Of a stretch of 64,000 nucleotides of DNA, positions 34,724-61,339 are shown piece by piece. This DNA comes from Sedimentisphaerales bacterium (lineage in GTDB: Bacteria > Planctomycetota > Phycisphaerae > Sedimentisphaerales > SM23-30), in assembly GCA_963663965.2 (NCBI GenBank), contig CAXXFK010000015.1:128001-192000 (forward strand). The letters run 5' to 3'. The position numbers and the translations under genes were made by a program. Position 1 is the first letter of the stretch. Each line of letters starts with the position of its first letter. A model generated the notes under the pieces. That model was not told where the DNA came from. It saw only the letters and a program-made list of their open reading frames with translations, and did not search any database.

Positions 34724-35245
34724 ATGGATAAGAACAAACAGTTTATTCGCTTTTTTACCGGCGTCCAGGTTAAATTACATGCCTTTATCATGGCATGTGT
34801 GCATAACCGCAATGATGCCGACGATATCATGCAGGATGTTTCCGTAATTTTATGGGATAAATTCGAAACTTATGAAGTAAACCGGGATTTTGGCGCCTGG
34901 GCCATGGGAATTACTAAAATAAAAGTTATGGAATTCCTGCGTAAAAACAGGCGTTCAAAAATGGTTTTCAACGATTCCTTTTATCAATCGGTCTCTGATT
35001 ATACTGAGCAGGCCAATGATGACATAAACGAACGGATTGAAGTTGTCAAGAATTGCATGTTGAAACTTAAAGATAACGAACGAAATCTGTTAAAACTTCG
35101 TTACCACAAAAACCTTACTGTTAAGCAAGTCTCCCAGATCACCGGTCGTTCCTCGTACGGTTTATACAAATCTTTTGCACGATTAATCGTTTGTCTTCGT
35201 GAGTGCGTAAGGCGTAATCTGGCTATCCAGGGACTGGAGAGATAA
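34724..35245 (+). CDS. ECF sigma factor (Rhodopirellula/Verrucomicrobium-type)
   Basis: LHAFI..ADDIMQDVSVILWDKF..FGAWA; region 4 LLKLRY..LRECV. Confidence 0.9.
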   Translation: MDKNKQFIRFFTGVQVKLHAFIMACVHNRNDADDIMQDVSVILWDKFETYEVNRDFGAWAMGITKIKVMEFLRKNRRSKMVFNDSFYQSVSDYTEQANDDINERIEVVKNCMLKLKDNERNLLKLRYHKNLTVKQVSQITGRSSYGLYKSFARLIVCLRECVRRNLAIQGLER

Positions 35246-36955: not shown

Positions 36956-36982
36956 CAAACCCGTATTTGAAAGGAAAAGTGA

Positions 36983-39145: not shown

Positions 39146-39164
39146 ATTGAAAGTATTGCGTATA

Positions 39165-39199
39165 GGTTCAGTCGAGCCGGCAAATGGCCCGGCTGAACC
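39165..39199 (+). terminator. Intergenic stem-loop (terminator or mRNA processing site)
   Basis: GGTTCAGTCGAGCC...GGCCCGGCTGAACC. Confidence 0.45.
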
Positions 39200-39275
39200 T
39201 TTCATATCCTGATAAATAAAGACTAACATCCAATATAAATCACCCCTGATTGATTTAACCAAATAAAAAATACTT

Positions 39276-40740: not shown

Positions 40741-40784
40741 AAATACTTTAAGATCTGAAACGATCTTCTGGAGAGACACTACGC

Positions 40785-42428: not shown

Positions 42429-42447
42429 CCATAGAAAGGGATTCCAC

Positions 42448-43233
42448 ATGAATATGATTAATAAAAACAGACGGGGGTTTACTCTGATTGAATTACTTGT
42501 TGTTATTTCGATTATCGCTTTATTGATCGCGATATTAATGCCCGCGCTGGGTAAAGCCCGGGAACAAGCCAGGCTGATTACCTGTGTCACCAATGTCAGA
42601 TCGCTTTCCCAGGCCTATGACTTGTATCTGAGTAATTATGATGGCAAATTATTGCCTTACTACGAGGGGGGGGATTTCGCCCGGAAAATCCAGAATTTAT
42701 GGTTGTTGCAATTGCAGAAAATCCAGAAGGATGTCAGTGACAATCGCTTTTGTCCCATGGCAGCCAGGGCGAACCTCACTGTAGATCCTGTCGCAAAATC
42801 TCAATACTACCCGAAACACAAAAAAGAACCCTGGCACTGGCATGGTCTGAATACCGAATATGTCGCCGACGGCAGCTATGGCATGAATGGCTGGATTTAT
42901 GGCCCGAAATACAACGAATCCGATTTGCCGGATCATTACAAAAACAGTTCGGAAATCAAGCCGGCCGCCAATGTGCCGCGTTTTTTTGACTGTATCTGGG
43001 TTGACACCTGGCCTTCGGACAACAATAGCGTCAACAACCTGACATCCGATCCGGGCTTACTGGAAACCGGAAGCTGGGATAGTATGATGGGACGTATCTG
43101 GATTAACCGTCACGCCAAAAAACTCGCCATGTCTTTTTGGGATGGTCACGCCGAAGCGATTCCATTAAACACACTCTGGTCACTGGACTGGCACAAACGG
43201 TTTTACAAACAGCTTGATATTACGCTACCCTGA
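42448..43233 (+). CDS. Prepilin-type N-terminal cleavage/methylation protein with H-X9-DG motif (DUF1559-like)
   Basis: [61 protein letters not shown]. Confidence 0.92.
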
Positions 43234-45255: not shown

Positions 45256-45294
45256 GAGTCATATCCTAAGCAAAAATGCTTGAAATTGCAAGTG

Positions 45295-45636
45295 TTATTT
45301 TAGCTTAAAACGTGCTTTTAATGCAGTTTTATGCGGTTTTAAGCCTTTCAGCATCATCGCCAGTTGACGATGATCCACGGCATGATCGGCGCCGGTTGGC
45401 GGGATGGAAAAGGTGCCTTTTTCCAGGCGCTTATACCAGATGGCATAGCCATCTTGATCCCAGTATAAACACTTGATCCGATTGCCGCGTTTATTGCAAA
45501 AGATAAAGATGTGGCCGCTGAGCGGATTCTGGCAGAGAACCGACTCCACCAGAACGGCCAGGGCATCGAAACTCTTTCGCATGTCCGTGGGCGCCTGGCA
45601 AAGATAGATCTTGACGGGGGAGGGCAGATGCCACAT
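45295..45636 (-). CDS. tnpB: IS66 accessory protein TnpB (Orf2)
   Basis: PTDMRKSFD, LYWDQDG..KRLEKGTF. Confidence 0.95.
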   Translation of the reverse strand: MWHLPSPVKIYLCQAPTDMRKSFDALAVLVESVLCQNPLSGHIFIFCNKRGNRIKCLYWDQDGYAIWYKRLEKGTFSIPPTGADHAVDHRQLAMMLKGLKPHKTALKARFKLK

Positions 45637-45639
45637 ACG

Positions 45640-45969
45640 CTACCTCCGGCACAAGACGATGACTTTGTCGAGTTGGGCCAGGTCGCACGTTTCCGGCACA
45701 TCGATGGATATCCCCGTGGGCAGATTGATTCTGAGCAGAGAACTCGCACGGGTCCTGACCTCGATAAAGGACGGTGGGCGGGTGGCCGTTTGGGCCGGAA
45801 CGCCAAGATCACCGTCCAGGATCTTTAACTTGCGGGCAAAAGTTGAGATCGCCAGGTGATGCTCCCGGCAGTAATCCGATAGGCTTTGGCCACTGAGTCG
45901 AAATTGATTGATCTCGGCCTGCCAGAATTCCTTGCTGCGAAATAGCCGTCGCTTGCCTGTTCGGCTCAT
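45640..45969 (-). CDS. tnpA: IS66 accessory protein TnpA
   Basis: W....SGQSLSDYCREHHL..STF, FIEV, INLPTGI; AGGAG RBS. Confidence 0.88.
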   Translation of the reverse strand: MSRTGKRRLFRSKEFWQAEINQFRLSGQSLSDYCREHHLAISTFARKLKILDGDLGVPAQTATRPPSFIEVRTRASSLLRINLPTGISIDVPETCDLAQLDKVIVLCRR

Positions 45970-46190
45970 AATAGCTCCTGTCCTGATTAGAATATTGAAT
46001 GTCAAATAACCTGGACAGATTTTATCACACCCCCGCTATCCCGCAACGGGGGGTTCGCCGAACGGATACGGTAGACTTGAACTTACCGGAGTAATTTCTT
46101 GAATCAACCCCCGTTAATAGCAAAGGACGACGCATCGCGATCGCACGCACCAGGAATTCACCATGTGGAGGCCTGATAGCCAGTTGAAAA

Positions 46191-46784
46191 TTATCCCGTG
46201 GATCGGAAATCAGCATTTTCCCACCACCGCGCGTCGGGATAGGTCTCCCGCTGCATAATCGACTGGTTATAATCCACTCCCAGCTGGGTTTTCAGATACA
46301 ACACCATCGTCACCGCCCGGAACTTGCCTTCCGAACCATCGTAAGCCGCCGGCTCCTGCCGAAACCGCGGCAAACGCAACTCCGTCTGACAGCCAACCTC
46401 CGCCGCCCACCGATCCAGGATCGCCAGGCAATTCTCCACCTCCAAATCCTGCGATCCCGGCAGCCCCCCGGCGCACAACAGGTTCATCCGGGCGATATCC
46501 ACCCCCGCCAGTTCTTCCGGCCCCATCGCCAGCAACTCACCCAAAGTCCCCGGCTTTTGCCCACCTTGCGATACAACAGTTTTATTCGTTTTCTCAACCG
46601 GCATCACCTCAGAACCAGCCACCACCCCCAGCGTATCAGCCAGTGCAACCTTGGACCGCCCCTTCGCCTCGCGACCATCAGAATTCACCGCGACAGTCCC
46701 CACAACCCCAATCACACAGCCGGCAAGAAATATCCCTATCGCCTTCACGCCCCATACAGCTTGCTTAGTTATCATTTTTCCCAT
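46191..46784 (-). pseudogene. 3'-truncated near-identical copy of the transglutaminase-like gene at 50132-51151
   Basis: Near-identical DNA to ~50622-51125 up to ...YPDAR, then the sequence switches abruptly and stops; the catalytic Cys/His region is missing. Confidence 0.85.
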
Positions 46785-46789
46785 AGCTC

Positions 46790-47821
46790 TTATTCCGCCG
46801 CCTGCCACACTTTAATATCATATTTCGCAAACAACGGCTCCAGGACCCTTTCATACTCACGGACCTCCCTGGGAATCTGTTCTTCTTTCAGTTTCCATTC
46901 CTCTCGAATATATCCCGTACTGCCAAACCGGGGAATAGGCGGCACCTCCGGCCCCTGGATCAGCTTCTCCGCGCGAGCCAGGTAAAAGCCATTCCCAATC
47001 TCCACCACCATCTTCTTAAACCCATTGCCATGATAAAAGATATACTCCTCATGATAATACGGACCGGACCGGTCCAGATACGGTTCAGGGTTCAAATCCT
47101 CCTTCGTGATCCGCCGGATAACGCTTTCCGGCCGGGCCTGTTGAATCTCATCCTGAATTTTCAGATACGCCGCTATCGGCACCCGGCGACACCCAAATCG
47201 GTAAGGTGAAAATTCCTCTTCATCTTTGGCAAATTGGATACTATAGTGCCAATCCATCTTGATGTCTTGTACTGGATCTTTTACCGCTAACAACTGCCGG
47301 GCATTCTCTTCATTTACCTCCCAGTCAAAATAGATATAATCCCTGAAATTATTTTCTAACAGATAGATGCGAAAAGGTGTCTTTATCCATTCTCTTTCGT
47401 GTGTTTCATTATGAATTCCCCATTCATGATATTGAGAACCATAATATATGTGATCTTTTGAACGTCGTTTCAAAAAATCATATTTATCTAACAAATAATT
47501 TCGATCGATTATATGGTTTTCAGGATAATACTGATTTACATACTCCGTATAATTTATAAATTCTTTATCGCGAATAACACATTGACTAAAATCCTTTTCA
47601 AATGCCTTCCAGATCAAGATCTCTTTGTTTATCTCACCCAGTTTATCCGGATGAATACCTATACAAATTTCATCAGTTTTATCATATTCACTTAAAGTCT
47701 CTTTGATCGCCACGATATCATGGCCACAATAATGACATCCCAGCATAAAAATTACTATCACGGCGTTAATAGGATAATATGCTTTTCTCATAGTATCTCC
47801 GGCAAAATACCTCATAATCAT
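46790..47821 (-). CDS. Exported hypothetical protein, putative partner/immunity of the upstream Tgl-like gene; paralog of 51204-52211
   Basis: Hydrophobic N-terminus ending LGC; shared motifs EILIWK.FE, DYI.FDW, YH.EY.FY..N.F..MV...GNGF...R.E.LIQGP, LF.KY. Confidence 0.7.
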   Translation of the reverse strand: MIMRYFAGDTMRKAYYPINAVIVIFMLGCHYCGHDIVAIKETLSEYDKTDEICIGIHPDKLGEINKEILIWKAFEKDFSQCVIRDKEFINYTEYVNQYYPENHIIDRNYLLDKYDFLKRRSKDHIYYGSQYHEWGIHNETHEREWIKTPFRIYLLENNFRDYIYFDWEVNEENARQLLAVKDPVQDIKMDWHYSIQFAKDEEEFSPYRFGCRRVPIAAYLKIQDEIQQARPESVIRRITKEDLNPEPYLDRSGPYYHEEYIFYHGNGFKKMVVEIGNGFYLARAEKLIQGPEVPPIPRFGSTGYIREEWKLKEEQIPREVREYERVLEPLFAKYDIKVWQAAE

Positions 47822-48879
47822 TTTTTGCTTCTGGCATGAAAGACTTTTTCAGCAATTTGAGCCCAATCCAAAAAATCGTTAAATTCAATCCAGATATGAG
47901 TGTTGCTGCTATAGGCCGAACCAATAGTCTGACTGCCAACCACCTTTTCGAAGGGAACATAATAGTTCCAGTTATCTATCAAACTATGCTGTAATTCCTC
48001 AGCAGAAAGAATTTTTTTTGAAGGAAATCCAAAATACGAATTTTCTCCAACTTTTATTGCATTTTCATGCCGGGCTGATCCTAAACTTTGTGGATATTTA
48101 CTTATTCCAGTTATAACAGTTGGCCCATAGGGACCATTCCAATTATTTATATAGGGACCGTTAGTAAAGCGTATCCAATTCCCAATCACCATACTATCAA
48201 AATTCCTGTCATACTCTATGAACGGCAAAGCCTCTCCCTTGAATGTAACATTGTATTCGGCCGGCTTCAAAGTCCCGATAACGGCATTAGCCATAATAAA
48301 ATAAGCCGCGTCCCAACAATCCGCCTGCAGTCTATTATTCGGATTGCCAAAATATCTTTTAATCATTACATCACTCGCACCGTAACGTTTTTGCACTCCC
48401 AGCGAATTAAAGCTCCCATGAAAACCATAGGCCCCCGCCACCACATTCGAACGAAGCAGGTTTTCATAGTACCTGAAATAATACTCAAGATTATAAATGG
48501 TCCCTTCAGGTACTTCATCCTTGATTTCCAATCCCGGTACCTTTTGTACAATATTTCTGACTTGCGAATAGAATTGCCCCATTTCGCCCGGTAACAGTTT
48601 CCACAATCCGCTCCAGGTATCGCGACACTCAGCTTGCACCAAACCCTTATACGGCTTCGATTCCCAGGGTTTTCCATAAACCTTCCACAAACCCGCCGGA
48701 TCAACCGCTAGCACCGGTTGGCTTCCCACATATTCATACCCGTTCATCCCATCCGTATATTCCACCGGATCCAGGCTCAGCCACCGCCCCTGCTTCGCGT
48801 CATACATCCCATAGCCCGCCTGTCCGGCCAATCCAATCCAGATCATCATAACAGCAAAGATCGCTTTGGGCTTATCCAT
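47818..48879 (-). CDS. Signal peptide + Rhs-core tail + Tgl-like transglutaminase domain
   Basis: SP ending AGYG; YDAKQGRWLSLDPVEYTDGMNGYEYVGSQPVLAVDPAGL; DCWDAA..GNWIRFTN..HENAIKVGENSYFG. Confidence 0.75.
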   Translation of the reverse strand: MDKPKAIFAVMMIWIGLAGQAGYGMYDAKQGRWLSLDPVEYTDGMNGYEYVGSQPVLAVDPAGLWKVYGKPWESKPYKGLVQAECRDTWSGLWKLLPGEMGQFYSQVRNIVQKVPGLEIKDEVPEGTIYNLEYYFRYYENLLRSNVVAGAYGFHGSFNSLGVQKRYGASDVMIKRYFGNPNNRLQADCWDAAYFIMANAVIGTLKPAEYNVTFKGEALPFIEYDRNFDSMVIGNWIRFTNGPYINNWNGPYGPTVITGISKYPQSLGSARHENAIKVGENSYFGFPSKKILSAEELQHSLIDNWNYYVPFEKVVGSQTIGSAYSSNTHIWIEFNDFLDWAQIAEKVFHARSKK

Positions 48880-48975: not shown

Positions 48976-49221
48976 TCACAATAAACATTCAACATGATTA
49001 AAGAGGATCAAGGCCAGGCATATTCCAATTAAAATAGCGTTAATAATACCTTCTCTTTTCGAATATCTGCCTTTTTTCTGGAATATCAATAATATAATTC
49101 CCATCAGATAAAAACAATCGCCAATCAATTCGAATTTATCTTGCACTATTAATGAAAATACAATCCCTAAAAACAAGAGTATCAAAATTAGGATGGTATT
49201 ATTGCGCCTTTTTAACGACAT
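48976..49221 (-). CDS. Small membrane protein, putative immunity protein
   Basis: Three hydrophobic helices, AT-rich, overlaps the stop of the upstream Rhs-tail gene. Confidence 0.6.
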   Translation of the reverse strand: MSLKRRNNTILILILLFLGIVFSLIVQDKFELIGDCFYLMGIILLIFQKKGRYSKREGIINAILIGICLALILFNHVECLL

Positions 49222-50119
49222 TAAGTATTCCCCAATTAAAACCAGCAGCTTCAAATCCATTGCCCAACCAATAAAAACCATTTTTTGAAACCGTATCAGA
49301 CCAGGGTGGATTCGCTTGGGCAGCATTACAAATTTTTAAAATAAGAATACCCAATTGATGATCTGGAATATCTAATGGGATTATTGTGTCTGAATTGTCA
49401 CCTTGATTTTTTGAGACGAGCCATACTCCTTTTAGTGCATTGCCCCATGGAAGAGAGAACTTACCTCCTTTACCACCCCAGCCATGTCCACCTCCCATAA
49501 TACCGTACAATTCTGTAGGAGATATATTACTAATATTGGAGGATGGCCATGGCCTTACATAATAATCATAGAATGGGGCATAAAAACCTTTTTGGCTTAA
49601 TAATTCAATAGCTTTTCGCCATGTACCAAGATATAAATAATGTGCTTGGGTATTCATGTGTCCCAATGCGACAACAAATGTGTTAGGGACTGAAAAACGC
49701 CTGGTTTCTTTGAGTGCTTGACTTGAACTTGGCGGAAGCGGTTTTCCATCTAAAGCAACCAGCCATCTTCTAAAATACCTTTCATCTAATAATATTTTTT
49801 TGGATAAACTATCAATTGTATCTCCGCATTCCCCTATGGCGTTAGCTGTTTTTTTATATTGCCGAATTACTTTCCACTCTAATCCAAACATATCTTTTTC
49901 ACTGCTAGGCCTCCCCCCTACATACTCATACAAATTCCCACCATCCGCATACTGCCCCGTCGGCCCAAACGCATTCGTCTCATCGCCCACCACCGTCCCC
50001 ACCGGATCCAGGCTCAGCCACCGCCCCTCTTTCGGATCATACATCCCATAGCCCGTCAGACAGAAAGCTCCCATCCAGATCAGGCCCACAACCCATCGGT
50101 AACACCCCAGTTTAGTCAT
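49199..50119 (-). CDS. Signal peptide + Rhs-core tail + unknown C-terminal domain
   Basis: SP ending TGYG; YDPKEGRWLSLDPVG..NLYEYVGGRP..DMFGL; GC-rich 5' part and AT-rich CT. Confidence 0.75.
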   Translation of the reverse strand: MTKLGCYRWVVGLIWMGAFCLTGYGMYDPKEGRWLSLDPVGTVVGDETNAFGPTGQYADGGNLYEYVGGRPSSEKDMFGLEWKVIRQYKKTANAIGECGDTIDSLSKKILLDERYFRRWLVALDGKPLPPSSSQALKETRRFSVPNTFVVALGHMNTQAHYLYLGTWRKAIELLSQKGFYAPFYDYYVRPWPSSNISNISPTELYGIMGGGHGWGGKGGKFSLPWGNALKGVWLVSKNQGDNSDTIIPLDIPDHQLGILILKICNAAQANPPWSDTVSKNGFYWLGNGFEAAGFNWGILNVVKKAQ

Positions 50120-50131
50120 CAGATGATCCTC

Positions 50132-51151
50132 TCATTGAGTTGGCGTAACAGTCTTCTGATAAATCGCACGATAGTTTCCCAGTTCCTTTTCCAGCGCCCG
50201 GTTCAAATGGGCCAGGGTATCCAGCGAATCCGGCATCAACCGATAGGCCCAGGCGTACATGGCCTGGGCTTCCGTCACCCGTCCGGCATCGAACAGACAA
50301 TGCCCGCGTGTCTGCAAGAACACACCCAGTTCCTCGGACGGGCTCAACGATCTCAGATACGGATTGGCCCGCATATCCGCATCGCTGATCCGGCCCGGCC
50401 AGCTGCGATAATACGCATCCGGATGCGAATCACAGCCCGGACAGCAGGCCTCCACATTAAAAACCTCACTCCCCTCCTCCCAGCGGAAAAACACATGCTG
50501 GCGGGTCGCAACCAGTTTGAGCGGATACCCCAGCCGCCGGCCCACCGCCACACACAAAGTCGGAATCGACAGACAGCCGCCCTGCTTCTGATCGCCCAGA
50601 CAGCCATGAATAAACACATCCCGCGCGTCGGGATAGGTCTCCCGCTGCATAATCGCCTGGTTATAATCCACTCCCAGCTGGGTTTTCAGATACAACACCA
50701 TCGTCACCGCCCGGAACTTGCCTTCCGAACCATCGTAAGCCGCCGGCTCCTGCCGAAACCGCGGCAAACGCAACTCCGTCTGACAGCCAACCTCCGCCGC
50801 CCACCGATCCAGGATCGCCAGGCAACTCTCCACCTCCAAATCCTGTGATCCCGGCAACCCTCCGGCGCACAACAGGTTCATCCGGGCGATATCCACCCCC
50901 GCCAGTTCTTCCGGCCCCATCGCCAGCAACTCACCCAAAGTCCCCGGCTTTTGCTCACCTTGCGATACAACAGTTTTATTCGTTTTCTCAACCGGCATCA
51001 CCTCAGAACCAGCCACCATCCCCAGCGTATCAGCCAGTACAACCTCGGTCCGCCCCTTCGCCTCGCGCCCATCAGAATTCACCGCGACAGTCCCCACAAC
51101 CCCAATCACACAGCCGGCAAGAAAGATTACTACACCCACTTTCAACTTCAT
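50132..51151 (-). CDS. Membrane-anchored transglutaminase-like (Transglut_core2/SirB1-like) protein with TPR-like tail
   Basis: DIARMNLLCA; FIHGCL..GGCLSIPTLCVAVGRRLGYPLKLV...HVFFRW....FNVE (Cys-His-Glu). Confidence 0.75.
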   Translation of the reverse strand: MKLKVGVVIFLAGCVIGVVGTVAVNSDGREAKGRTEVVLADTLGMVAGSEVMPVEKTNKTVVSQGEQKPGTLGELLAMGPEELAGVDIARMNLLCAGGLPGSQDLEVESCLAILDRWAAEVGCQTELRLPRFRQEPAAYDGSEGKFRAVTMVLYLKTQLGVDYNQAIMQRETYPDARDVFIHGCLGDQKQGGCLSIPTLCVAVGRRLGYPLKLVATRQHVFFRWEEGSEVFNVEACCPGCDSHPDAYYRSWPGRISDADMRANPYLRSLSPSEELGVFLQTRGHCLFDAGRVTEAQAMYAWAYRLMPDSLDTLAHLNRALEKELGNYRAIYQKTVTPTQ

Positions 51152-51203
51152 GCTATCCCCTGATTTTTTGATAATTTAATCTGTTTTCACCTTAACAGGC
51201 ATC

Positions 51204-52211
51204 TTACAAACCGTATTTATCAAATAAACTTTTCACATAATTTTCAAATTCACTGACCTCAGCCGGAATTTGGTCTTTCTCCACCCGATACGCCCCAACA
51301 TCACTAAGCTGGGTTCCATGGCGCTGTTTTCGTTCTTCAAGTTCTTCCGCGCTCCATTCAAATTGTGGTCCTTGTATCAGCAGTTCAACCCGGCCCATAA
51401 AAAAACCATTACCCATCTTGATCACCATCCGCCAGAAACTGTTTCGATAATAGAAAACATACTCTTTATGATACCATTTCTTATCGGTACGAATGCTGGG
51501 TTCAGGCAAAATCGTATCGGTCCCTGCCATTTTTCTGACACATTGCGGCCGGCTGGCTCGAATTTCTTGTTGAATCGCTGGATACTTGTCAAGAGGAATT
51601 ATTCGATAATCCAGTTGATAACCATCCACCGCATCAATTTCGTCCAAAAACGCCAGGTTTCCAGCCACCAATTGACGATCCAGTTCATGCATTTCCTTTA
51701 GCAGTTCTTCGGCATGATCCCTGATCAGATCCCAGTCAAAATGGATATAATCAAAAAATTGATTGCCCATCTCCCGGCAACCCAGGTCGTTTTGAATAAC
51801 CCATTTGATTCGTGGTTCCGGCTTATTCGTTTTAGCGCTATAGCGGTTTTGATATCGCTTTTCAAAAATCTGACAATCCGGCCGCAATTTTAAAAACCGA
51901 TGCTGATCCAGAAATGGATAAGATTGCACCTGACTCACGACCTCAAGACCCTGTTTGGCTACCAAGAAGCTGTTTGGATCGCCATAATTAACAAATCCCT
52001 GACAAAGAAACGGATCATTTGATTCCATTTCAAATATCTTCCATATGAGAATTTCATGATCGATATCCCAGACTTTGGCGGCATCAATATAAACACAAAC
52101 AGCGATTGATTCCTGGCATTCATCAAATATTTCACAATTCGTGTGTATTGCCTGAATCATCGATCCCATGCAACACAAGATTACAATTACTATTTTATCC
52201 ATACTAATCAC
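51204..52211 (-). CDS. Exported hypothetical protein, putative partner/immunity; paralog of 46790-47821
   Basis: Signal-like N-terminus; motifs shared with the 46790 gene. Confidence 0.7.
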   Translation of the reverse strand: MISMDKIVIVILCCMGSMIQAIHTNCEIFDECQESIAVCVYIDAAKVWDIDHEILIWKIFEMESNDPFLCQGFVNYGDPNSFLVAKQGLEVVSQVQSYPFLDQHRFLKLRPDCQIFEKRYQNRYSAKTNKPEPRIKWVIQNDLGCREMGNQFFDYIHFDWDLIRDHAEELLKEMHELDRQLVAGNLAFLDEIDAVDGYQLDYRIIPLDKYPAIQQEIRASRPQCVRKMAGTDTILPEPSIRTDKKWYHKEYVFYYRNSFWRMVIKMGNGFFMGRVELLIQGPQFEWSAEELEERKQRHGTQLSDVGAYRVEKDQIPAEVSEFENYVKSLFDKYGL

Positions 52212-52232
52212 ACATAAAAATACTAGATTCCA

Positions 52233-53264
52233 TTAACTTCTATTTCTTATATTAAATATTCTTTTTGCAATTCTCGCCCAGTCTAAAAAACGATTAAATC
52301 CAATCATAACATGATTTTTATTGTACGGATCATATGGTCGTTTCAAATCAGGCCCCCGACCATTATTTACAACATTATTGATCCAGGCATTAATCATCTC
52401 AGTCCTCCATCCATCCCAGCTTAAATTTCCAATTGGAAATCCCCAATACAAATCTTCACCAACTTTAATGGCATTTTCGTGTCGAAACGCGTCTGGATTT
52501 GGTGACCATTTTGGATTTATGTATAGATCTTGGCCGTTTATTATTGGCCCATTTTGAAATCGTACCCAATTACCAACTGGCATATTGCTAAAGCTCTTAG
52601 GATATTCAACAAATGGGATCGCGCCAATTTGATTAAATTCACCTGGATGTAATGTATCTATCACCGCTTTGTCCATAACATATTGAGCGGCATCCCAGCA
52701 ATCCAGCGATTTACCCGTTGCCGGGTCTTCATCAAAGTAAGCGTTCACAAAATCTTCTTTGGCCGAATAGCGCGCAGTTAAATGACTGGCACCAAATTTT
52801 CCCATCTCAAAACTCACGGTTGCTTTCACCACATTACCACGCAATAATTGCTCGTAAAACATCAGATACGACTTTAGGTTGACACGGATCCCATTAGGCA
52901 CGCTGTCAATATCGACCCCGGCTATTTGTTTCGTAGCATATGCCAGTGCATGATATAATCCACCATCCAACCCCGGCAATAAACTCAATAACTCGCTATA
53001 AGTATCGCCACATTCTGATATGATAAATCCTTCATAGGTCAATGACTTCCAGGCTCCCTGAGCCTTCCACAGGCCCGCCGGATCAACCGCTTGCGCCGGT
53101 TGGCTTCCCACATATTCATACCCGTTCATCCCATCCGTATATTCCACCGGATCCAGACTCAGCCACCGCCCCTGCTTCGCGTCATACATGCCATAGCCCA
53201 CCTGGACAAGTGATAGAATCCAGCCAACCGCCATCACCCCAATCAGCCTTTTTGTATTAATCAT
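52233..53264 (-). CDS. Signal peptide + Rhs-core tail + Tgl-like transglutaminase domain; paralog of 47818-48879
   Basis: GGAGGT RBS; SP ending VGYG; near-identical Rhs tail; DCWDAAQYVMDKAVIDTL..EFN, GNWVRFQN, HENAIKVGEDLYWG. Confidence 0.75.
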   Translation of the reverse strand: MINTKRLIGVMAVGWILSLVQVGYGMYDAKQGRWLSLDPVEYTDGMNGYEYVGSQPAQAVDPAGLWKAQGAWKSLTYEGFIISECGDTYSELLSLLPGLDGGLYHALAYATKQIAGVDIDSVPNGIRVNLKSYLMFYEQLLRGNVVKATVSFEMGKFGASHLTARYSAKEDFVNAYFDEDPATGKSLDCWDAAQYVMDKAVIDTLHPGEFNQIGAIPFVEYPKSFSNMPVGNWVRFQNGPIINGQDLYINPKWSPNPDAFRHENAIKVGEDLYWGFPIGNLSWDGWRTEMINAWINNVVNNGRGPDLKRPYDPYNKNHVMIGFNRFLDWARIAKRIFNIRNRS

Positions 53265-53311: not shown

Positions 53312-53388
53312 TTAGATTCAGCGGTTCATCGATTCCATTGCCATAGACGAACTCACGCCGGGTTGTTCCTTGCTCATCGGTTTCCATT
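53312..53388 (-). pseudogene. Short Rhs-core remnant
   Basis: Encodes METDEQGTTRREFVYGNGIDEPL, matching the Rhs cores at ~56750 and ~60730. Confidence 0.7.
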
Positions 53389-54585
53389 ATTATCCTCAAA
53401 GATAATGGGATACCCAACTTCTGTATCCCATTCAATCACATACTGATATAAAGGTTGCTGATCCCAGGTAATTAGCTTATATTTCGGCCCGTTATTTTTC
53501 AGTGCCGAATCAGTTTCAGTTTTAATGTCTATTTCCAGCCTCTGCTTTTTCAGAAGCTCAAAGCTGCGTTCTCTGAATTCTGACTCAGAATTACGATCCC
53601 ATTCTGTCACAATGGTCAATCCAGGTAATTTTTGTCTTAACGCCTCAATACCTGTTAAAGTTACCTGAGTATTGAATACTGTCAGATATTTTAAATTTTT
53701 CATATACGCCAGAAAGCTTAATCCTTTATCCGAAATCGCAGTCGAATGCAATTCCAGATACTCTAAATCTGGCTCTCGATAAAAATATAGATCACGATCC
53801 GTAATATTAGTATAGGACAATAGTAGCTTCTTTAAATGAAGCGGATTGAGTTCCGCAATATTGTAATCTCTGAAATAATTTCCCCGCAAATCCAGAATTT
53901 GCAGCTCCGACATATCTGCAATATCACACCATCCCGAACCTGTGATCTTAGTCCAGGAAGCATTCAGATAACGCAAGTTTTTGAAATTCGCTACCACACT
54001 GAGATAATCATCGTTACTGGTATACGGCAATCCCAGATAGGTCAGATTGGATAATCCCGAAAGTTCAGCGAAGTTTTCCCGGGTCATACTGGCAAAATAT
54101 AAGTCCAAATACTTCAAATCGACAAAGTCGGAAATCTCCTTGACTGTGGGAACATAAGTTTGGTTTCTAAAATCATAACAAAAGGATCTCAACTCGATTT
54201 GACCGATATGTGTCAATGTCTGTCTATCGCCGGAACGGCCATTGCTAATCGCTAAACCTTCCACATACAATTCGGATGGTTTAGCTGTTGAACGAGAGCC
54301 GAACTGGACTAGCAAGTGGTCAATCCCTGCCAAATCTTCTAAACCTTTCCTATCTCTGGAATTAAGCCCCTCATATAACTTACAATTCAGGTCACTTTTA
54401 TAATAGAGATACCCTCCTTGAGGTACGGTATAAACACGACGAAGCATACCCCTAATATTTTCGGAATATAACTCCCTCTGACAGCGAAGCCAATGATCTT
54501 CTGTAATCCCTTCACCACCCATCAAAGCGTTAGAAAGCAAAAACAGGTTAAAATACAACAGGTATATCCTTTTTAATGAACACAT
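53374..54585 (-). CDS. Leucine-rich-repeat protein (planctomycete-type), possibly an orphaned immunity protein
   Basis: Repeated LxxLxLxxTxITDxG (LRYLNASWTKITGSG, LKKLLLSYTNITD, LEYLELHSTAISDKGL). Confidence 0.8.
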   Translation of the reverse strand: MCSLKRIYLLYFNLFLLSNALMGGEGITEDHWLRCQRELYSENIRGMLRRVYTVPQGGYLYYKSDLNCKLYEGLNSRDRKGLEDLAGIDHLLVQFGSRSTAKPSELYVEGLAISNGRSGDRQTLTHIGQIELRSFCYDFRNQTYVPTVKEISDFVDLKYLDLYFASMTRENFAELSGLSNLTYLGLPYTSNDDYLSVVANFKNLRYLNASWTKITGSGWCDIADMSELQILDLRGNYFRDYNIAELNPLHLKKLLLSYTNITDRDLYFYREPDLEYLELHSTAISDKGLSFLAYMKNLKYLTVFNTQVTLTGIEALRQKLPGLTIVTEWDRNSESEFRERSFELLKKQRLEIDIKTETDSALKNNGPKYKLITWDQQPLYQYVIEWDTEVGYPIIFEDNNGNR

Positions 54586-54847
54586 ATTATTCACCTTAAT
54601 ATAATACCACACTTGGATCATATTCACCAGATACCCATGGGCTTATTGAATTCGATGCATAATCACTTACATTAAATGGATACCAAACATTTGGATCCCA
54701 AGCATGTAAATAGTCGGGTCAGTAACGGCTGTTCCGGCCCAATTGGGCGTCGCCCATGCGGTCTCATTTAAATGATCCATCATTTCCTGATCCATCCTGT
54801 CAATCCTGTGATCCTGTCTAGAATATTTTTCTTTAAAATCTCGACGA

Positions 54848-54999: not shown

Positions 55000-55458
55000 T
55001 CATTCCGTTGACACAAAACGCTTATAGAGTATAAGACTATATTTTTCATATAAATCCTTTGCAATAAATTTGTGCTTGCCTTTAATTAGAAAAACCTGCT
55101 CATTTCCCTTATCGTAAATTGTACCACTGCGTTCTTTAAGATCGTTAAAATCCTTACCATACCCAATAAAATAATCATCCAACGCATCAGTTTGAATGAC
55201 ACAATCCATATTTTGACCATATCGTAATAGATAATCTTTATTTGAAACCGAGTCTGGTTTTACCAATTGCAAATAACCTTTTAAAATCAGATCATTCTTG
55301 CTTGTAGGCATTGCATTATTCTGGTCAATATAACAAGAAAGCCAGGTACATATTTTGTACAAATCACATCCCGTCTTATATCTTATATAAGCAACATCGA
55401 AAGCAATATACAATATAATTATAACCGCAATTATAATTAGTCTTTTTTTCATGGACAC
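55000..55458 (-). CDS. Putative immunity protein (N-terminal TM helix)
   Basis: AT-rich, overlaps the 3' end of the upstream Rhs-CT. Confidence 0.65.
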   Translation of the reverse strand: MSMKKRLIIIAVIIILYIAFDVAYIRYKTGCDLYKICTWLSCYIDQNNAMPTSKNDLILKGYLQLVKPDSVSNKDYLLRYGQNMDCVIQTDALDDYFIGYGKDFNDLKERSGTIYDKGNEQVFLIKGKHKFIAKDLYEKYSLILYKRFVSTE

Positions 55459-56930
55459 TCCTTCAACATTACCTCAATAATCTGCCTGGCATATCTTCCA
55501 CATGCATGTTGTGCAGTATATATCCAAGGCTGATCTACAAGCCCCTTTTTTAATTTGTCTGCGGCATCGCAACTTATTGCTCCGGCAAATTCCCATTTCG
55601 CACCTAAATCCGAATTGTGTGTAATTTCTGTTTGAACAATGCTAAATACAAATCCGGCCTGCTTAAATCCAAACAACTCACCTGGCATTACATGAATATC
55701 CCATGATTTCTCAATGCCATGCTTGAAGCATTTTACTCTGGCAACTTTATGAGCCCATGTGGATTCAAGGGTGACAAAATAAACTCCGCACCAACAACAT
55801 GTACCTTTATGAGCGCCATAGACAGTACTTGATGAATTTCCATATTTACATTGACATGCGGCCATCGCATCTTGTTTTTCTCCTCTTGGCACTGAAACCT
55901 GTTTACAATCACTTATCGTCTTATAGTGCTGTATCGGGTCCCCATGCATATAAGTAGTATGCGTATAGACCTTTTTACCATGCTCTGGACCTTTGATCTT
56001 GCAACAGGCATAACTATCTTCACTTAATCCAGTTAAATCACCATTCATCATCGGTCCACTCTTTACATATTCATACAAATTCACTCCATCCGTATACTGC
56101 CTCAGCGGACTGAAACCATTCATAGTGTCCCCCGGCACTACCCCCAGCGGATCCACACTCAACCACCGCCCGGTCCGATAATCATAATACCGATGACGGT
56201 TAATCTGAATCAGCTTCGCCCCGCCGTCAAGGATATCTAATCGCCGACCGGTGAAGTAGTACGGATTACCGATAACCGATCCTACCGCCGAAGCCGTCAA
56301 TTCCGAAGTCGGCCCCGCCACACTCATCGCCGGCATCTCCAATCCTCCCAGCGACAGTCCTTCAGCATCAATCACCGTATTGGGATCCAGCAGCATCCCC
56401 AACGAATCGTTCGGATCGTAAACCGGGTCATACTCCGGCAACTCCGTCGCATACAATACCGGCGCAAACTGCCAGTCCCACGGCTCCATCCGCCACAGCG
56501 ACTCCTGCGCCAACTCATCCTCCGTCACCCCCGCCCAGGCCGCCTCATCATACCCCCCATACGCCGGCATAACCGCCCCGGCGATCAGATCATCCCGCAC
56601 CCACACACTCGGCTTGCCATAGACATCATACTCGTACCGCTCGGCCACCTCTGCCGATTCATCTAATAAGGCAACGGTGCTATTCAGGTGGTCCTGAACA
56701 TAGTAATACAACGGCTCACCGGCCGTCATCCCATCGATCAGGATCAGCGGCTCATCGATACCATTGCCATAGACGAACTCACGCCGGGTCGCCCCTTCTT
56801 CATCCGTCTCCATCACCACCTGCCAGCGGTCATTGAAGTAATAGCGCGTCACAGTATCCACCACCTCGCCCGGCACCCGCATCTCGATGCGGCGTCCCTG
56901 GGCATCGCTAGGCTCAAAAAACAACAACAA
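55449..56930 (-). CDS. Orphan Rhs core fragment + Cys-rich C-terminal toxin domain
   Basis: FVYGNGIDEP, DHLNST, YEYDVYG, NPYYFTGRRLD, RYYD..GRWLSVDP, NLYEY..DLTGL; no convincing start. Confidence 0.8.
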   Translation of the reverse strand: MLLFFEPSDAQGRRIEMRVPGEVVDTVTRYYFNDRWQVVMETDEEGATRREFVYGNGIDEPLILIDGMTAGEPLYYYVQDHLNSTVALLDESAEVAERYEYDVYGKPSVWVRDDLIAGAVMPAYGGYDEAAWAGVTEDELAQESLWRMEPWDWQFAPVLYATELPEYDPVYDPNDSLGMLLDPNTVIDAEGLSLGGLEMPAMSVAGPTSELTASAVGSVIGNPYYFTGRRLDILDGGAKLIQINRHRYYDYRTGRWLSVDPLGVVPGDTMNGFSPLRQYTDGVNLYEYVKSGPMMNGDLTGLSEDSYACCKIKGPEHGKKVYTHTTYMHGDPIQHYKTISDCKQVSVPRGEKQDAMAACQCKYGNSSSTVYGAHKGTCCWCGVYFVTLESTWAHKVARVKCFKHGIEKSWDIHVMPGELFGFKQAGFVFSIVQTEITHNSDLGAKWEFAGAISCDAADKLKKGLVDQPWIYTAQHACGRYARQIIEVMLKECP

Positions 56931-56958
56931 TCATAAAATCAGTACACATAGTATCATT

Positions 56959-57453
56959 TTATGGATTTTCCTCATCTATTGCCCACGATTTATTAATAGC
57001 ATATTTCTGCACAATATCATCCTTCAATCCCTTGTCATCTTTTCCATTGTAGCCATAACTCATAAGACAATACTGACCATCTTTCTCCTTGATAATTATG
57101 ATTGGTTTATTGTAATCATCAAGCAAATCATTGTTTGTGTCAATATATTCATCTAAATAACTCAAATTTGCAGCAACTACAATATCGTCATTTTCTACAG
57201 ATTCACCCCATTCTGCAGATTTGCCCCATTCTATCACCGAACGGGTAGTTATGGGAAATTTTTCATTATTTTTTGCATATATTTCTACGATATTAGAAAA
57301 AAAATCCATTCTTTGCTTTGTTCTAGATATAGCCTCAGCCTTCCCTTGTCGTATACAATCTCGCTCATTTAAAAAATTGACGACAAGTACAAACACAACA
57401 ACAACGGCCACAAGTGCCGCTAAGATATATTTATATTTTTTATTTAAACACAT
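56959..57453 (-). CDS. Putative immunity protein with GspG/pseudopilin-like C-terminal motif
   Basis: TM helix; DDYNKPI..YCLMSYGYNGKDDKGLKDDI; overlaps the toxin stop. Confidence 0.6.
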   Translation of the reverse strand: MCLNKKYKYILAALVAVVVVFVLVVNFLNERDCIRQGKAEAISRTKQRMDFFSNIVEIYAKNNEKFPITTRSVIEWGKSAEWGESVENDDIVVAANLSYLDEYIDTNNDLLDDYNKPIIIIKEKDGQYCLMSYGYNGKDDKGLKDDIVQKYAINKSWAIDEENP

Positions 57454-58669
57454 CGGGGATTCGTCCTTCGGTTCCGAACTCATATATTACGTTACTAGGA
57501 TGACAAACAAATTTATAGCAAGAATTGCCCTTATATTTTAATAAGCTGTTATATTTTTCCGCTAATTCACGACAACTTAATTTAAAACCAAATATTTTTT
57601 TAAGCTCTTCAAATGGTCGTTCACCTAATGTAAAATTATATCCCAACAAGCCCTGTTCCGACATTGTTAACAGGCTTTTTGGCAAACCCTTAAGAGCTTC
57701 ACTTGAAACAACCCAAGCGCCATTATATTGTACGCCTTCTCTAGCTGTACTCCATACTAATTTCCAGAATCCTTTGATTTTTCTTGTATTAGAAAAATTA
57801 TTTTCAACATTATAAATATATATCTCCCGCTCTAAAAGTCTAAGATCTCTTAATGGGGTTAAAATTTGTTCTGAAGCATATGCTATGCCTTCATTTTTAA
57901 TAATATCTCTTAAATTATCCTTATCAGGATAAATTCCATTAAGATATAAATATGCATGAACTAACTCATGTAATGCGGTAGCATTAGTAGAACCTTCGGG
58001 CAAATATACAGTTTCGGATTCATCATCAAAATGAGCAATAGATGTAATTATAGGTCGTCTAATTCCACCATGATTGAATAGTACATTAGCAGTATTTGTT
58101 AAATCAATCTCAAGCATTTTTTTAAAACCTGTTAAAGGATAAAAAGCAGTAGAAACTTCATTTCCGTTTACATTAACTGAAGAATAATAAGAAATAAGAC
58201 TTTGAATATGATTTAATAGGAAGTTTTCTGCCGCTTTTGGGGTGTCTCTCACATAATTCCCTCCTAGCCCTCCATAAGGATCCCAATAATCTGTACCCAA
58301 AGGATCATAATATTCAACAGGATTATCCCCAACATACTCCAACAAATTCCCCCCATCTGCATACTGTCCCAGCGGACTAAAAGCATTCTCATAATCCCCC
58401 GGCACCACGCCCAGCGGATCCACACTCAGCCACCGCCCGGTACGATAATCATAATGCCGATGCCGGTTAATCTGAATCAGTTTCGCCCCGCCGTCAAGGA
58501 TATCCAGCCGCCGCCCGGTGAAGTAGTACGGATTGCCGATAACCGACCCCACCGCCGAAGCCGTCAATTCCGAAGTCGGCCCCGCCACACTCATCGCCAG
58601 CATCTCCCCAGCGGCGAGCGTCAGCGACCCGATTTCGTCCGCCGACAGTCTCTGCGACAATCCATCCAC
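57440..58669 (-). CDS. Orphan Rhs core tail + HExxH metallopeptidase-like toxin domain
   Basis: Rhs tail ending DPLG; TVYLP..TALHELVHAYL..NEGIAY. Confidence 0.75.
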   Translation of the reverse strand: MDGLSQRLSADEIGSLTLAAGEMLAMSVAGPTSELTASAVGSVIGNPYYFTGRRLDILDGGAKLIQINRHRHYDYRTGRWLSVDPLGVVPGDYENAFSPLGQYADGGNLLEYVGDNPVEYYDPLGTDYWDPYGGLGGNYVRDTPKAAENFLLNHIQSLISYYSSVNVNGNEVSTAFYPLTGFKKMLEIDLTNTANVLFNHGGIRRPIITSIAHFDDESETVYLPEGSTNATALHELVHAYLYLNGIYPDKDNLRDIIKNEGIAYASEQILTPLRDLRLLEREIYIYNVENNFSNTRKIKGFWKLVWSTAREGVQYNGAWVVSSEALKGLPKSLLTMSEQGLLGYNFTLGERPFEELKKIFGFKLSCRELAEKYNSLLKYKGNSCYKFVCHPSNVIYEFGTEGRIPDVFK

Positions 58670-58730
58670 AGCCGTATTAGATAGGATAACAGGATTTACA
58701 GGATAATTTATAATCCAATAGCCCTCCTTC

Positions 58731-59267
58731 TTATCTCGTAAGTAGAGTATCGAGCCGTTTTACCACATTATCCGTTTTCCAATCGTCCGACATCCAAAAC
58801 TTAATAAATGTATCATAAGGGACTGGAGCATACCGGTGAAGTACGCCCGTATCCAAACTTGTGACCTCAATTAATAAGCCAATTCTATCATTTTCTTTTG
58901 AAATAAAATACAAATATTCATAATCAAGACCAGATATGCCTCTACCACAAGCATAGATCGCACTAATTGTTATTATCGGCTTTCTGTCAATTAAATCAGG
59001 TTTAACTGCATTAGGGTCTGGAGGATCAAACACAATATCAGATTCGTCAAAACCTTCAATTCTATACTTTTTTTGATATCCAAGCATTTCAAGTTTCTGA
59101 CAAACCTTTTCAACCTGATCACCAATTACTAAATTGGGGGCCGGGTTATAGTTAGTCCGGCATAGCAAGGAAGACTCGTCACACCACATTTTGGCGGCTG
59201 TTACCCTGTCACACCCTGACAAATAGACACACACAATAAACAACGCGATCAAAATTAGTTTTCTCAT
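58731..59267 (-). CDS. Putative lipoprotein immunity protein
   Basis: MRKLILIALFIVCVYLSGC lipobox; overlaps the toxin stop. Confidence 0.7.
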   Translation of the reverse strand: MRKLILIALFIVCVYLSGCDRVTAAKMWCDESSLLCRTNYNPAPNLVIGDQVEKVCQKLEMLGYQKKYRIEGFDESDIVFDPPDPNAVKPDLIDRKPIITISAIYACGRGISGLDYEYLYFISKENDRIGLLIEVTSLDTGVLHRYAPVPYDTFIKFWMSDDWKTDNVVKRLDTLLTR

Positions 59268-61339
59268 TTATTAATCTCCACCACTAACCATGGAAATGCC
59301 TCGTATGGGTATCGTAACGGACTTATTATCTTGCCATCTGGACTTACGCATCGTTTTACAATTTCATGTTTAGACTCATCATAATAAATATTGCATGAAT
59401 ATCGATGTTCTTCATTAGTCCAGGCAAATGGCGCGCTTTTTTCCCATGGATCTAACCGCACTGAGCATGGACCAGTAAGTAATGGTCGTTCACCAACAGA
59501 TACTGTTGCCCAATTGTGTCGAATAGTCATACTTTTATTAATTGTTTCAGTTGGATCATAGCCTGCTCTCCATACTTTAAAACAGCTATCCGAATCCCTG
59601 CTGGCTTTGATGGCATTGTAGGTTAAGGTCTGCCAGTAGAAGCAGGGCCAACCACAATGTAAATTGCCATATTCAGACCCCAAGTAACTGTTATCTTGTA
59701 TTCCAAAATTAATCATCGCAAATGACTGAGGATAATTCGCCATATTATCCCACATCTTGATATAATCGTTCGCAATCTGCCGGGCCTCTCTGAGGCATTT
59801 GAAAAGATCGCATTTGCAATCAGAATTATCTCTGCACTTTTTGTTTCGACATACTTTGGCCAATTTTTCATAAACTAACGATGCCGATTCAGTTAACGGC
59901 CCGTATAATGGAGGTTCTGCTCTTGTTTGAGCGTCTGGATAAATTACTTTTGGATAAATCAGACCGGTATCAGGGTCAACATAATCTGTTGCGGAATCAA
60001 TAACATTCGTCATCTTTCCCATCGGATCTGTATTTATCATCACCTGTGAATAAGCATATTGATAAAGATTCATCCCATCGACATATCCAGCAGGATCCAC
60101 ACTCAGCCACCGCCCGGTACGATAATCATAATACCGATGCCGGTTAATCTGAATCAGCTTCGCCCCGCCGTCAAGGATATCCAGCCGTCGCCCGGTGAAG
60201 GAATACGGATTGCCGACAACCGACCCCACCGCCGAAGCCGTCAACTCCGAAGTCGGCCCCGCCACACTCATCGCCAGCATCTCCAATCCTCCTGGTATCC
60301 CCGTATCAGCGGCGATCAATCCCGTACTATTGGGATCACTCGGCCAGCCCATCATGTCGCTGCCGCTCCATGCTTCATTCGGATCCAGCGCCGCCAACAG
60401 CAGTATCGGCGTATTATCACCCACCGCCATTTCTCCGGATGTTTCCTCCATGACCTTCATGTCCCTCGTGGTGAATAACGGCTGTTCCAGCCACCCGGCC
60501 GCCGCGTCGGCGTAGAAGGTCAACGAATCCATCGGCCTCACCGTCGGCGCCATGATCGAGTCGCTGACGCTCCCCGCTGCTACCCAGACACTCGGCTTGC
60601 CATACACATCATACTCATACCGCTCGGCCACGTCCGCCGCTTCATCCAACAGCACAACGGTACTATTCAGGTGGTCCTGAACATAGTAATACAACGGCTC
60701 TCCGGCCGTCATCCCATCGATCAGGATAAGCGGCTCATCGATCCCGTTGCCATAGACGAACTCACGCCGGGTCGCCCCTTCTTCATCCGTCTCCATCACC
60801 ACCTGCCAGCGGTCATTGAAGTAATAGCGCGTCACAGTATCCACCACCTCGCCCGGCACCCGCATCTCGATGCGGCGTCCCAGCGCGTCATAGTCATAAG
60901 CGACCACATCCGTATCACTCCCTTCATCATACACCCCATCGCTGTCCAGGTCAATATAAACCCGCTTCAGCCGGTTCTCATAGTCCCAGACATAACTATA
61001 GCCTTCTTCATCAGTTACGACATTCCCCGCCGCGTCATAGCCCAGCTGCACATCATAACTGCCGACCGCGTCATACTGGTTCGTCAGCGCATCGACGGCA
61101 TAAGTCTCGACCGCCCCGGTTTTCAGGGCCACCTGCGTCCGGTTCCCCAGGGTATCGTAATCGAAAACTTCCGACTGACCCTGGGCCAGCCGCTCGATCG
61201 TCGCCTCAGACAGAACCTGGTTATAGATCCGCACATCGTCGATCACCCCATCAAAACCACGGCCGCCGCCGATCCGGGCCAATGAAATGACCTGAATGAA
61301 CCGACTTTCAGCCGCCAGACTATTGGCAATTACCATCAC
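59264..61339 (-). CDS. N-terminally truncated Rhs protein (LamG remnant, YD repeats, core) with Cys-His-Asp C-terminal domain
   Basis: FDGVIDDVRIYNQVLS (LamG end); YDTLGNR, YDAAGN, WDYENRL, YDALGRR; core ending DPMG; CT PCFYWQ..HNWA..LDPW. Confidence 0.8.
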   Translation of the reverse strand: MMVIANSLAAESRFIQVISLARIGGGRGFDGVIDDVRIYNQVLSEATIERLAQGQSEVFDYDTLGNRTQVALKTGAVETYAVDALTNQYDAVGSYDVQLGYDAAGNVVTDEEGYSYVWDYENRLKRVYIDLDSDGVYDEGSDTDVVAYDYDALGRRIEMRVPGEVVDTVTRYYFNDRWQVVMETDEEGATRREFVYGNGIDEPLILIDGMTAGEPLYYYVQDHLNSTVVLLDEAADVAERYEYDVYGKPSVWVAAGSVSDSIMAPTVRPMDSLTFYADAAAGWLEQPLFTTRDMKVMEETSGEMAVGDNTPILLLAALDPNEAWSGSDMMGWPSDPNSTGLIAADTGIPGGLEMLAMSVAGPTSELTASAVGSVVGNPYSFTGRRLDILDGGAKLIQINRHRYYDYRTGRWLSVDPAGYVDGMNLYQYAYSQVMINTDPMGKMTNVIDSATDYVDPDTGLIYPKVIYPDAQTRAEPPLYGPLTESASLVYEKLAKVCRNKKCRDNSDCKCDLFKCLREARQIANDYIKMWDNMANYPQSFAMINFGIQDNSYLGSEYGNLHCGWPCFYWQTLTYNAIKASRDSDSCFKVWRAGYDPTETINKSMTIRHNWATVSVGERPLLTGPCSVRLDPWEKSAPFAWTNEEHRYSCNIYYDESKHEIVKRCVSPDGKIISPLRYPYEAFPWLVVEINK

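Follow-up and report, generated by a model that had tools for sequence, protein, structure and literature searches.

The window, as the whole stretch of 64,000 nucleotides analysed here is called, carries on its minus strand a series of short genes in which an Rhs-type tail is followed by differing C-terminal domains. Two of these mini-Rhs genes, encoding P0001 and P0002, end in a domain resembling the spore-coat protein Tgl; the part behind the tail is called the cargo. The features are, in the direction of transcription:

55000..61339 (-): three partial Rhs cassettes upstream, with unrelated tips, each with a small gene behind it whose product has a hydrophobic N-terminus
53374..54627 (-): leucine-rich-repeat protein flanked by Rhs-repeat remnants, possible orphan immunity gene
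52233..53264 (-): mini-Rhs gene 1, P0001, 343 aa, with signal-like N-terminus, Rhs tail, LysM-like module and Tgl-like domain
53190..53264 (-): predicted Sec signal peptide of P0001, residues 1-25, by sequence inspection; hydropathy 2.2
53073..53189 (-): Rhs-associated core tail of P0001, residues 26-64, with Asp38 and Asp61 (the latter opening DPAG, followed by L)
52869..53045 (-): LysM-like beta-alpha-alpha-beta module of P0001, residues 74-132; support weak but consistent
52236..52868 (-): Tgl-like, NlpC/P60-fold predicted catalytic domain of P0001
52698-52700, 52476-52478 and 52437-52439 (-): codons of C189, E263 and F276 of P0001
51204..52211 (-): partner gene 1, P0003, 335 aa, hydrophobic N-terminus, putative immunity protein
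50132..51151 (-): Transglut_core2 (SirB1-like) protein, 339 aa; the N-terminal segment is hydrophobic and the C193-H219-E234 triad is kept
49199..50119 (-): third mini-Rhs gene, 306 aa, with signal, tail and LysM-like module as in P0001 and a different C-terminal domain
48976..49326 (-): small membrane protein, putative partner of the third mini-Rhs gene; start possibly further downstream
47818..48879 (-): mini-Rhs gene 2, P0002, 353 aa, layout as in P0001
48316-48318, 48064-48066 and 48025-48027 (-): codons of C188, E272 and F285 of P0002, equivalent to the above, with D187 and N273 beside them
46790..47821 (-): partner gene 2, P0004, 343 aa, lipobox-like motif, overlapping the stop of P0002
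46191..46808 (-): truncated second Transglut_core2 copy, 97.6% identical over 507 bp, adjoining an element that we take to be IS66-like

On the minus strand the P0001 and P0002 reading frames are unbroken, each beginning with ATG behind a ribosome-binding site (GGAGG / GAGG). The two proteins are 48% identical overall and 39-41% identical within the cargo, and P0003 and P0004 are 29% identical. A contig of sequencing run X1 reproduced 51069-53125 without differences and contigs of run X2 matched 46701-48743; as these runs possibly derive from the source sample, the agreement excludes an assembly slip only. A preliminary description had placed the first domain at 52233..52850, which spans the catalytic domain only (about residues 139-343 of P0001), and had listed five motifs common to the paralogs. 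All five were found in both proteins, AVI(D/G)TL among them, although the spacing from TL to the following E is three residues and not two. Its account of the genes as mini-Rhs genes also holds, since both have the signal-like start and the Rhs tail and both exceed the TIGR03696 cut-off of 32.5 (P0001, 41.6 bits, E=1.3e-10; P0002, 40.1 bits). No YD-repeat cage is present in either polypeptide, the cargo being preceded by 64 residues, whereas longer homologues do contain YD repeats. The signal-plus-tail layout of P0001 recurs in P0002, in the third mini-Rhs gene and in the homologues P0008, P0009, P0022, P0029 and P0038. Within the window the shared tail extends over 150 bp at 93% identity, and behind it the Tgl-like domain alternates with unrelated tips. 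By analogy with Rhs toxins, the DPAG sequence beginning at Asp61 is the predicted cleavage site of P0001.

In the model, the stretch of about 60 residues behind DPAG folds as a beta-alpha-alpha-beta module, which is conserved across the Tgl-like family and is also shared with two non-Tgl tips. Pfam LysM (PF01476) matched 1 of 11 members only (E=0.097). The model of the module had a pLDDT of 70 and a best VIA Z score of 4.3 (rmsd 2.8, 52 residues aligned). At least 24 of the 45 Foldseek rows were LysM-bearing proteins, each at E>2 and none significant alone; seven carry LysM in their title, and the others we take to be LysM proteins from general knowledge. A LysM-like identity is likely but unproven, and the presence of such a module in P0001 brings up a peptidoglycan-directed reading of the whole protein, considered below. 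The preliminary description names neither this module nor the Transglut_core2 gene. In the third mini-Rhs gene (49199-50119), and likewise at L008:1432-2289, a domain containing the motif GGHG, possibly caspase-like, comes after the LysM-like module.

The likeness of the cargo to Bacillus Tgl, proposed in the preliminary description, stood up to comparison of both sequence and model. P0001 passed the Pfam TGL family (PF20085) narrowly, with 24.2 bits (E=2.3e-5) against a gathering threshold of 23.7, and P0002 alone gave no match to it. Among PDB sequences, B. subtilis Tgl (4P8I) was the only match of P0001 (E=0.021), and a 69-row family profile matched 4P8I at E=2.4e-19 and 7C9J at E=2.7e-16, the remaining 12 matches being Rhs tails. 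The structural check suggested earlier was carried out with an AlphaFold model of the P0001 cargo (pLDDT 86, pTM 0.88), and Tgl came out on top by both methods used. Foldseek gave a best E of 5e-6, and the two matches at E<=0.001 were both Tgl structures; VIA-align superposed 170 residues on Tgl with Z 15.2 and rmsd 3.0, the next match being an NlpC/P60 protein at Z 8.5. A search of the ESM Atlas returned no usable match for the cargo or for P0004. The homology of the window domains to Tgl is real and beyond chance, and the model predicts a Tgl-like fold for the P0001 cargo.

P0001 and P0002 nevertheless lie outside the spore-coat Tgl family itself. Against the PRK03187 equivalog, with its cut-off of 307 bits, P0001 scored 16.1 bits and P0002 gave no match; nor are the two stand-alone enzymes, being fused to a signal and an Rhs tail. 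A quick unrooted tree, built from 92 rows, grouped 10 proteins resembling canonical Tgl and one PG-binding fusion in a clade with support of 99. The window proteins fell outside it, among the other group of 74 rows (support 67, weak), as a pair on a long branch of 1.12. The tree being unrooted, no direction of recruitment between Tgl and toxin tips is claimed. The PG-binding fusion (L018:235-1644, G164) joins PG_binding_1 to a domain inside the spore-Tgl clade and comes from a genome of the window's phylum. As for the host, no Spo0A_C match was present in its genome (94.6% complete), a B. subtilis control being positive, in line with the non-sporulating lineage supposed earlier. The genome also contains five matches over cut-off to DUF1559 (SBP_bac_10), a family that we take to be typical of planctomycetes. 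From these two results we infer that the host is a non-sporulating planctomycete.

Aligned to 4P8I, residues F157, D188, C189, E263, N264 and F276 of P0001 correspond to F69, Glu115, Cys116, Glu187, Asn188 and His200 of Tgl, respectively. Thus Cys and Glu are kept, as C189 and E263 in P0001 and C188 and E272 in P0002, and the His position is occupied by Phe (F276 and F285), all as first noted from the sequence alone. Among the rows covering it, the Cys116 site is Cys in 66 of 66, and the residue before it is acidic in 63 of 66 (Asp in 53, Glu in 10). Glu187 is retained in 65 of 69 rows and Asn188 in 62 of 69. The His200 site, in contrast, is Phe in 38, His in 13, Trp in 11, Tyr in 6 and Ile in 1, and only 4 of 69 rows keep both Glu115 and His200. 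Judged by the alignment, the family departs from Tgl at two sensitive sites, Glu115 (mostly Asp) and His200 (mostly Phe, Trp or Tyr). The window proteins also have Arg for Tyr171, Asn for Asp168 and Phe or Ala for Trp184, while the equivalents of the tunnel-lining F69, E187 and N188 are kept as in Tgl. The Cys-His pair of NlpC/P60 enzymes is missing from both, with Glu at the His position as in Tgl. Passages of PMC6490927 describe a Cys116-Glu187 dyad in Tgl, with Glu115 as a substitute, and a His200 that is non-essential for catalysis and required for substrate binding; activity of the B. subtilis E115A and H200A mutants is given there as undetectable. In Tgl the place of the usual His is taken by a Glu, or by the Glu directly preceding Cys (PMC10318531, PMC6490927). 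Since Cys and Glu are conserved and an aromatic residue mostly occupies the His200 site, the family is compatible with a catalytic dyad plus an aromatic side chain at the mouth of the tunnel. A His directly before the catalytic-site Glu (H262 in P0001, 52479-52481; H271 in P0002, 48067-48069) occurs in only the two window proteins among the 69 rows, and could provide a local base.

A homologue search of 1.84 billion representative sequences gave 70 matches, namely the two paralogs, P0010 and 67 relatives; P0010 was dropped as a Rib-repeat false positive. Of the 68 non-self matches, 64 fit Pfam TGL at E<=0.01. An Rhs core is present on 19 of the 67 relatives, many of the others being fragments, and lengths reach 1978 aa. 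Other carriers are an eCIS core (one), Calx-beta or PKD domains (two) and a lectin propeller before the Tgl-like domain (one), and five relatives start, by inspection, with signal-plus-tail like the window genes. At L012:3-7466 and L014:2-6082 (the latter from an Omnitrophota genome) the LysM-like and Tgl-like modules are internal in proteins of more than 2000 aa and have no partner. Six loci were assigned to carrier taxa: Hydrogenedentes, Planctomycetales, Myxococcales, Omnitrophota, Chloracidobacterium and Phycisphaerae. The window's phylum was searched with a domain-only alignment, which kept Rhs tails from crowding the matches. Matches came from 8 of 401 genomes, the host included, with none listed from its own family or order; the other seven carry more Tgl-like domains, of which two belong to mini-Rhs genes and one follows an eCIS core. 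Among 8000 scored candidates, only two longer homologues emerged, both Rhs proteins. None of 15 pattern matches in viral contigs was confirmed, and plasmids gave a single weak Bacillus match. Of ten homologues checked for names, 5 have a member called 'hypothetical protein', and the others are nameless. In P0023 and P0049 a HEAT-like domain follows the Tgl-like domain in one chain, a possible toxin-partner fusion.

Linked genes were examined at 20 loci of the close family, of which 4 were duplicates, 2 had an internal domain and 2 lay at a contig edge, leaving 12 informative. All 12 have, closely linked on the downstream side, a gene whose product starts with a hydrophobic segment, and 8 of these partners form one family without a Pfam name (leave-one-out E<=8e-20). 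The members (L011, L016, L028-L030, L035, L037, L038) are 230-280 aa long, apparently exported and mostly lipoprotein-like. The family had no match among 20 stand-alone Tgl loci; members were nevertheless present in 4 of 401 genomes with no Tgl-like gene beside them, which counts against strict pairing. These orphan members (L068-L071) twice adjoin other immunity-like genes, and in one case the member is joined to a membrane protein, with an ECF-sigma-like gene behind it. P0003 and P0004 lie outside this family, in a different one (HHalign probability 0.2%), and no homologues of them beyond their own genome were found among 1130 candidates of 184-601 aa. Prediction of a complex between the P0001 cargo and P0003 scored 0.00, the fold of P0003 being itself uncertain. 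As a control, the other Rhs cassettes of the host genome were inspected with a pattern that caught only 10 of its 32 TIGR03696 places. Of the seven non-Tgl cassettes with a called downstream gene, five also have a signal-bearing partner. The use of the partner signal as a mark of a periplasmic target is weakened by this result, and the target compartment is not pinned by it. Taken at the sequence level, the Rhs, eCIS, surface-protein and giant-protein carriers together with a linked partner family form the pattern of a polymorphic toxin tip. The preliminary description had left the choice between a toxin and an extracellular cross-linker; the Rhs and eCIS carriers of the relatives and their toxin-then-partner gene order favour the former over the latter.

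The protein encoded at 50132-51151 matched Pfam Transglut_core2 below the cut-off (E=6.7e-4), and relatives of it were found in 21 of 301 genomes. An Rhs-tail gene lies within 250 bases downstream of 14 of the 15 distinct close matches (7 genomes), against 0 of 14 distant matches, the exception being the truncated copy at 46191-46808. The Rhs-tail profile used here was built from unrelated full-length Rhs proteins, and kin among the 15 places are not independent. The loci are the window gene at 50132-51151, L073-L078, L094-L099 and L101. Where inspected, the following genes have a signal-like start and varied tips, three of them Tgl-like; in the window itself the Transglut_core2 gene precedes the third mini-Rhs gene and not P0001. 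The Cys-His-Glu triad is kept also in distant Transglut_core2 relatives. This pairing suggests an undescribed cage-less Rhs system, in which the Transglut_core2 clade is a possible dedicated processing or anchoring enzyme for Rhs-tail mini-genes. A passage of PMC10318531 calls the function of the Transglut_core2 family unknown.

The host genome contains 32 Rhs-core places and 8 secretin matches over cut-off; no T6SS sheath gene was found in it, VipB giving no match. PADLOC matched 0 of 6 proteins. Further mini-Rhs genes stand beside LRR genes at G000:C12:63128-64885, and long Rhs-core frames elsewhere in the genome (6482 aa on C21, 2285 aa on C11 and 2129 aa on C6 of G000) could supply cages. 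Within the window, the tip of the Rhs cassette at 57440-58669 contains the motif HELVH and matches Tox-MPTase4 weakly (E=0.31). Transposase regions, which we presume to be IS66-like, occupy 39284-40663 and 43684-46005, the latter bordering the truncated Transglut_core2 copy. Farther away, a cluster at 31924-43233 with an ECF-sigma-like gene, a likely anti-sigma gene, LamG-type and glycosidase-like proteins and a gene with a prepilin-type N-terminus looks, by eye, like one for polysaccharide use, and a 270-aa ORF at 26566-27378 (+), with an Asn/Pro-rich low-complexity tail, runs on the strand opposite to its neighbours.

Our preferred reading, which we hold tentatively and at slightly less than even chance, is that the cargo is a Tgl-related polymorphic antibacterial effector, released at DPAG, that cross-links or deamidates Gln residues of envelope proteins in rivals, the downstream gene protecting the producer. 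Sequence homology, residue conservation, domain architectures and gene neighbourhoods are direct observations; that the window domains work like Tgl is suggested by analogy. The N-terminal signal would direct export through Sec. A cut after DPAG could then depend either on the Asp within the tail itself or on the adjacent papain-fold protein with its Cys-His-Glu triad; in Photorhabdus Rhs1 the Asp of the second DPxG motif is described as a catalytic residue in a section of PMC8636562. The LysM-like module might keep the cargo at the cell wall. A thioester would arise from attack of Cys189 on a gamma-carboxamide, Glu263 or Asp188 serving as acid/base, and would be resolved by an amine or by water; the exported partner would bind and block the enzyme. 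A more extended proposal is that the mini-Rhs genes constitute a cage-less, Sec-exported system. In it the Transglut_core2 enzyme would process or anchor proteins through the 40-residue tail, a recurrent, His-independent Tgl-type payload would kill by envelope cross-linking, and the new exported families would confer immunity. As a whole this is speculative and rather unlikely.

NlpC/P60 enzymes cleave the gamma-glutamyl amide, which is the same type of bond. The same toxin system could be aimed at peptidoglycan, the domain being a His-less relative of NlpC/P60 and Tae/Tse1 enzymes that hydrolyses or transamidates the gamma-D-glutamyl bond of the stem peptide. We regard this main alternative as unlikely while giving it real weight. 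The next-best structural matches after Tgl are NlpC/P60 hydrolases, at least 24 of 45 Foldseek rows for the LysM-like module are LysM-bearing (each at E>2), the Tgl-clade protein at L018 is fused to PG_binding_1, and the partner proteins appear exported. In addition, part of PMC10318531 groups TGL with NlpC/P60, CHAP and amidase effectors, and the giant Omnitrophota protein at L014 belongs to a class tied to cell-wall attack in part of bioRxiv 2023.11.21.568195. However, the hydrolase His is Glu in the Tgl-like family and the third site is mostly aromatic, and the Tgl match stands far above all hydrolases (Z 15.2 vs 8.5). The LysM-like assignment, too, is weak (VIA Z 4.3; Pfam LysM E=0.097, 1 of 11), and the module, being common to non-Tgl tips, is not specific to peptidoglycan chemistry. 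Toxin tips with another acyl-enzyme chemistry, such as a protease, an isopeptidase or an amidase of lipids or small molecules, would suit the diversity of reactions among papain-fold toxin domains, and the main text of PMC3482391 left Tox-TGase between peptidase and transglutaminase. The retention of the F69, E187 and N188 tunnel equivalents as in Tgl makes this very improbable.

Outside toxin function, the domain might be a harmless exported enzyme that stabilises the surface layer or matrix of the producer itself by cross-linking, in which case the downstream protein would be its substrate or chaperone. Cross-linking is the only proven function of Tgl in the sections of PMC6490927 that deal with it. 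Some homologues have Calx-beta or PKD surface-protein carriers or lie in giant proteins, and the mini-Rhs proteins have neither a cage nor a known injection part. The chance of such a role seems small all the same, as the spread is patchy (8 of 401 phylum genomes, the same family or order not being listed), the domain exchanges with unrelated tips behind one tail, and it stands behind Rhs and eCIS cores in a toxin-then-partner gene order. Slimmer still is the chance that these are silent or decaying spare cassettes of the Rhs array, or that activity was lost in this lineage. Against this, each gene is equipped with a ribosome-binding site and a start codon of its own and encodes a signal-like N-terminus, the paralogs are about 40% identical yet keep Cys, Asp, Glu and Asn, and the signal-plus-tail layout recurs in 14 places of 7 genomes. 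Pointing towards decay are the partial Rhs genes, the repeat remnants and the truncated gene beside an insertion element, as well as the long branch of the window pair (1.12) and its changes at several sites important in Tgl.

If the Tgl-type exchangeable toxin tip proves true, envelope protein cross-linking or deamidation would join the chemistries of interbacterial conflict. Members of the family are candidate small transglutaminases with new specificity, and their natural variation at His200 (Phe, Trp or Tyr) and at Glu115 (Asp) offers a direct test of the Cys-Glu dyad and of a non-catalytic His in Tgl. The Transglut_core2-mini-Rhs link would give bacterial members of that family a first testable role. 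In the freely accessible literature, the original structure paper on Tgl aside, nothing relevant linking Tgl with Rhs or toxins was found, and Tgl is not named in the main-text portion of PMC3482391, its large supplementary domain tables aside. What emerges is a real and apparently undescribed Tgl-like family, probably serving as polymorphic toxin tip, with a cage-less mini-Rhs carrier and a conserved papain-fold companion gene.

Among known systems, the NlpC/P60 amidase effectors Tse1 and Tae3 and the LysM-NlpC/P60 endopeptidases share with the window proteins the predicted fold (Z 5-8.5), a putative extracytoplasmic partner and, probably, a LysM-like module. They differ in that the window proteins have Glu in place of the catalytic His, and their structural match is far weaker than that of Tgl. 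Tox-TGase (Zhang et al. 2012) is likewise a papain-fold domain, proposed in the main text of PMC3482391 as a cross-linking or peptidase toxin tip, but belongs to a different clade, typified there by AvrPphE and RTX domains. To spore-coat Tgl (PF20085, PRK03187, 4P8I, 7C9J) the window domains are alike in the predicted fold, in the equivalents of Cys116, Glu187, Asn188 and Phe69 and in the acid before Cys. In contrast to Tgl, with which identity is about 15-18% and for which P0001 scores 16 bits where the equivalog cut-off demands 307, they have Asp at Glu115, Phe at His200 and Arg at Tyr171, and add a signal, an Rhs tail, a LysM-like module and a linked partner gene. Moreover, their host has no Spo0A_C match, and in the quick tree the pair falls outside the clade of Tgl sequences (support 99). 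With Rhs toxins (TIGR03696; Photorhabdus Rhs1, as described in part of PMC8636562) they have in common the two Asp-Pro motifs, a variable tip after DPxG, a downstream partner and an arrangement in cassette arrays. Unlike those toxins, however, the mini-Rhs proteins carry no YD-repeat cage and no PAAR or VgrG, the signal is joined straight to the last 40 core residues, and a Transglut_core2 gene stands before the signal-plus-mini-Rhs genes in 14 of 15 places.
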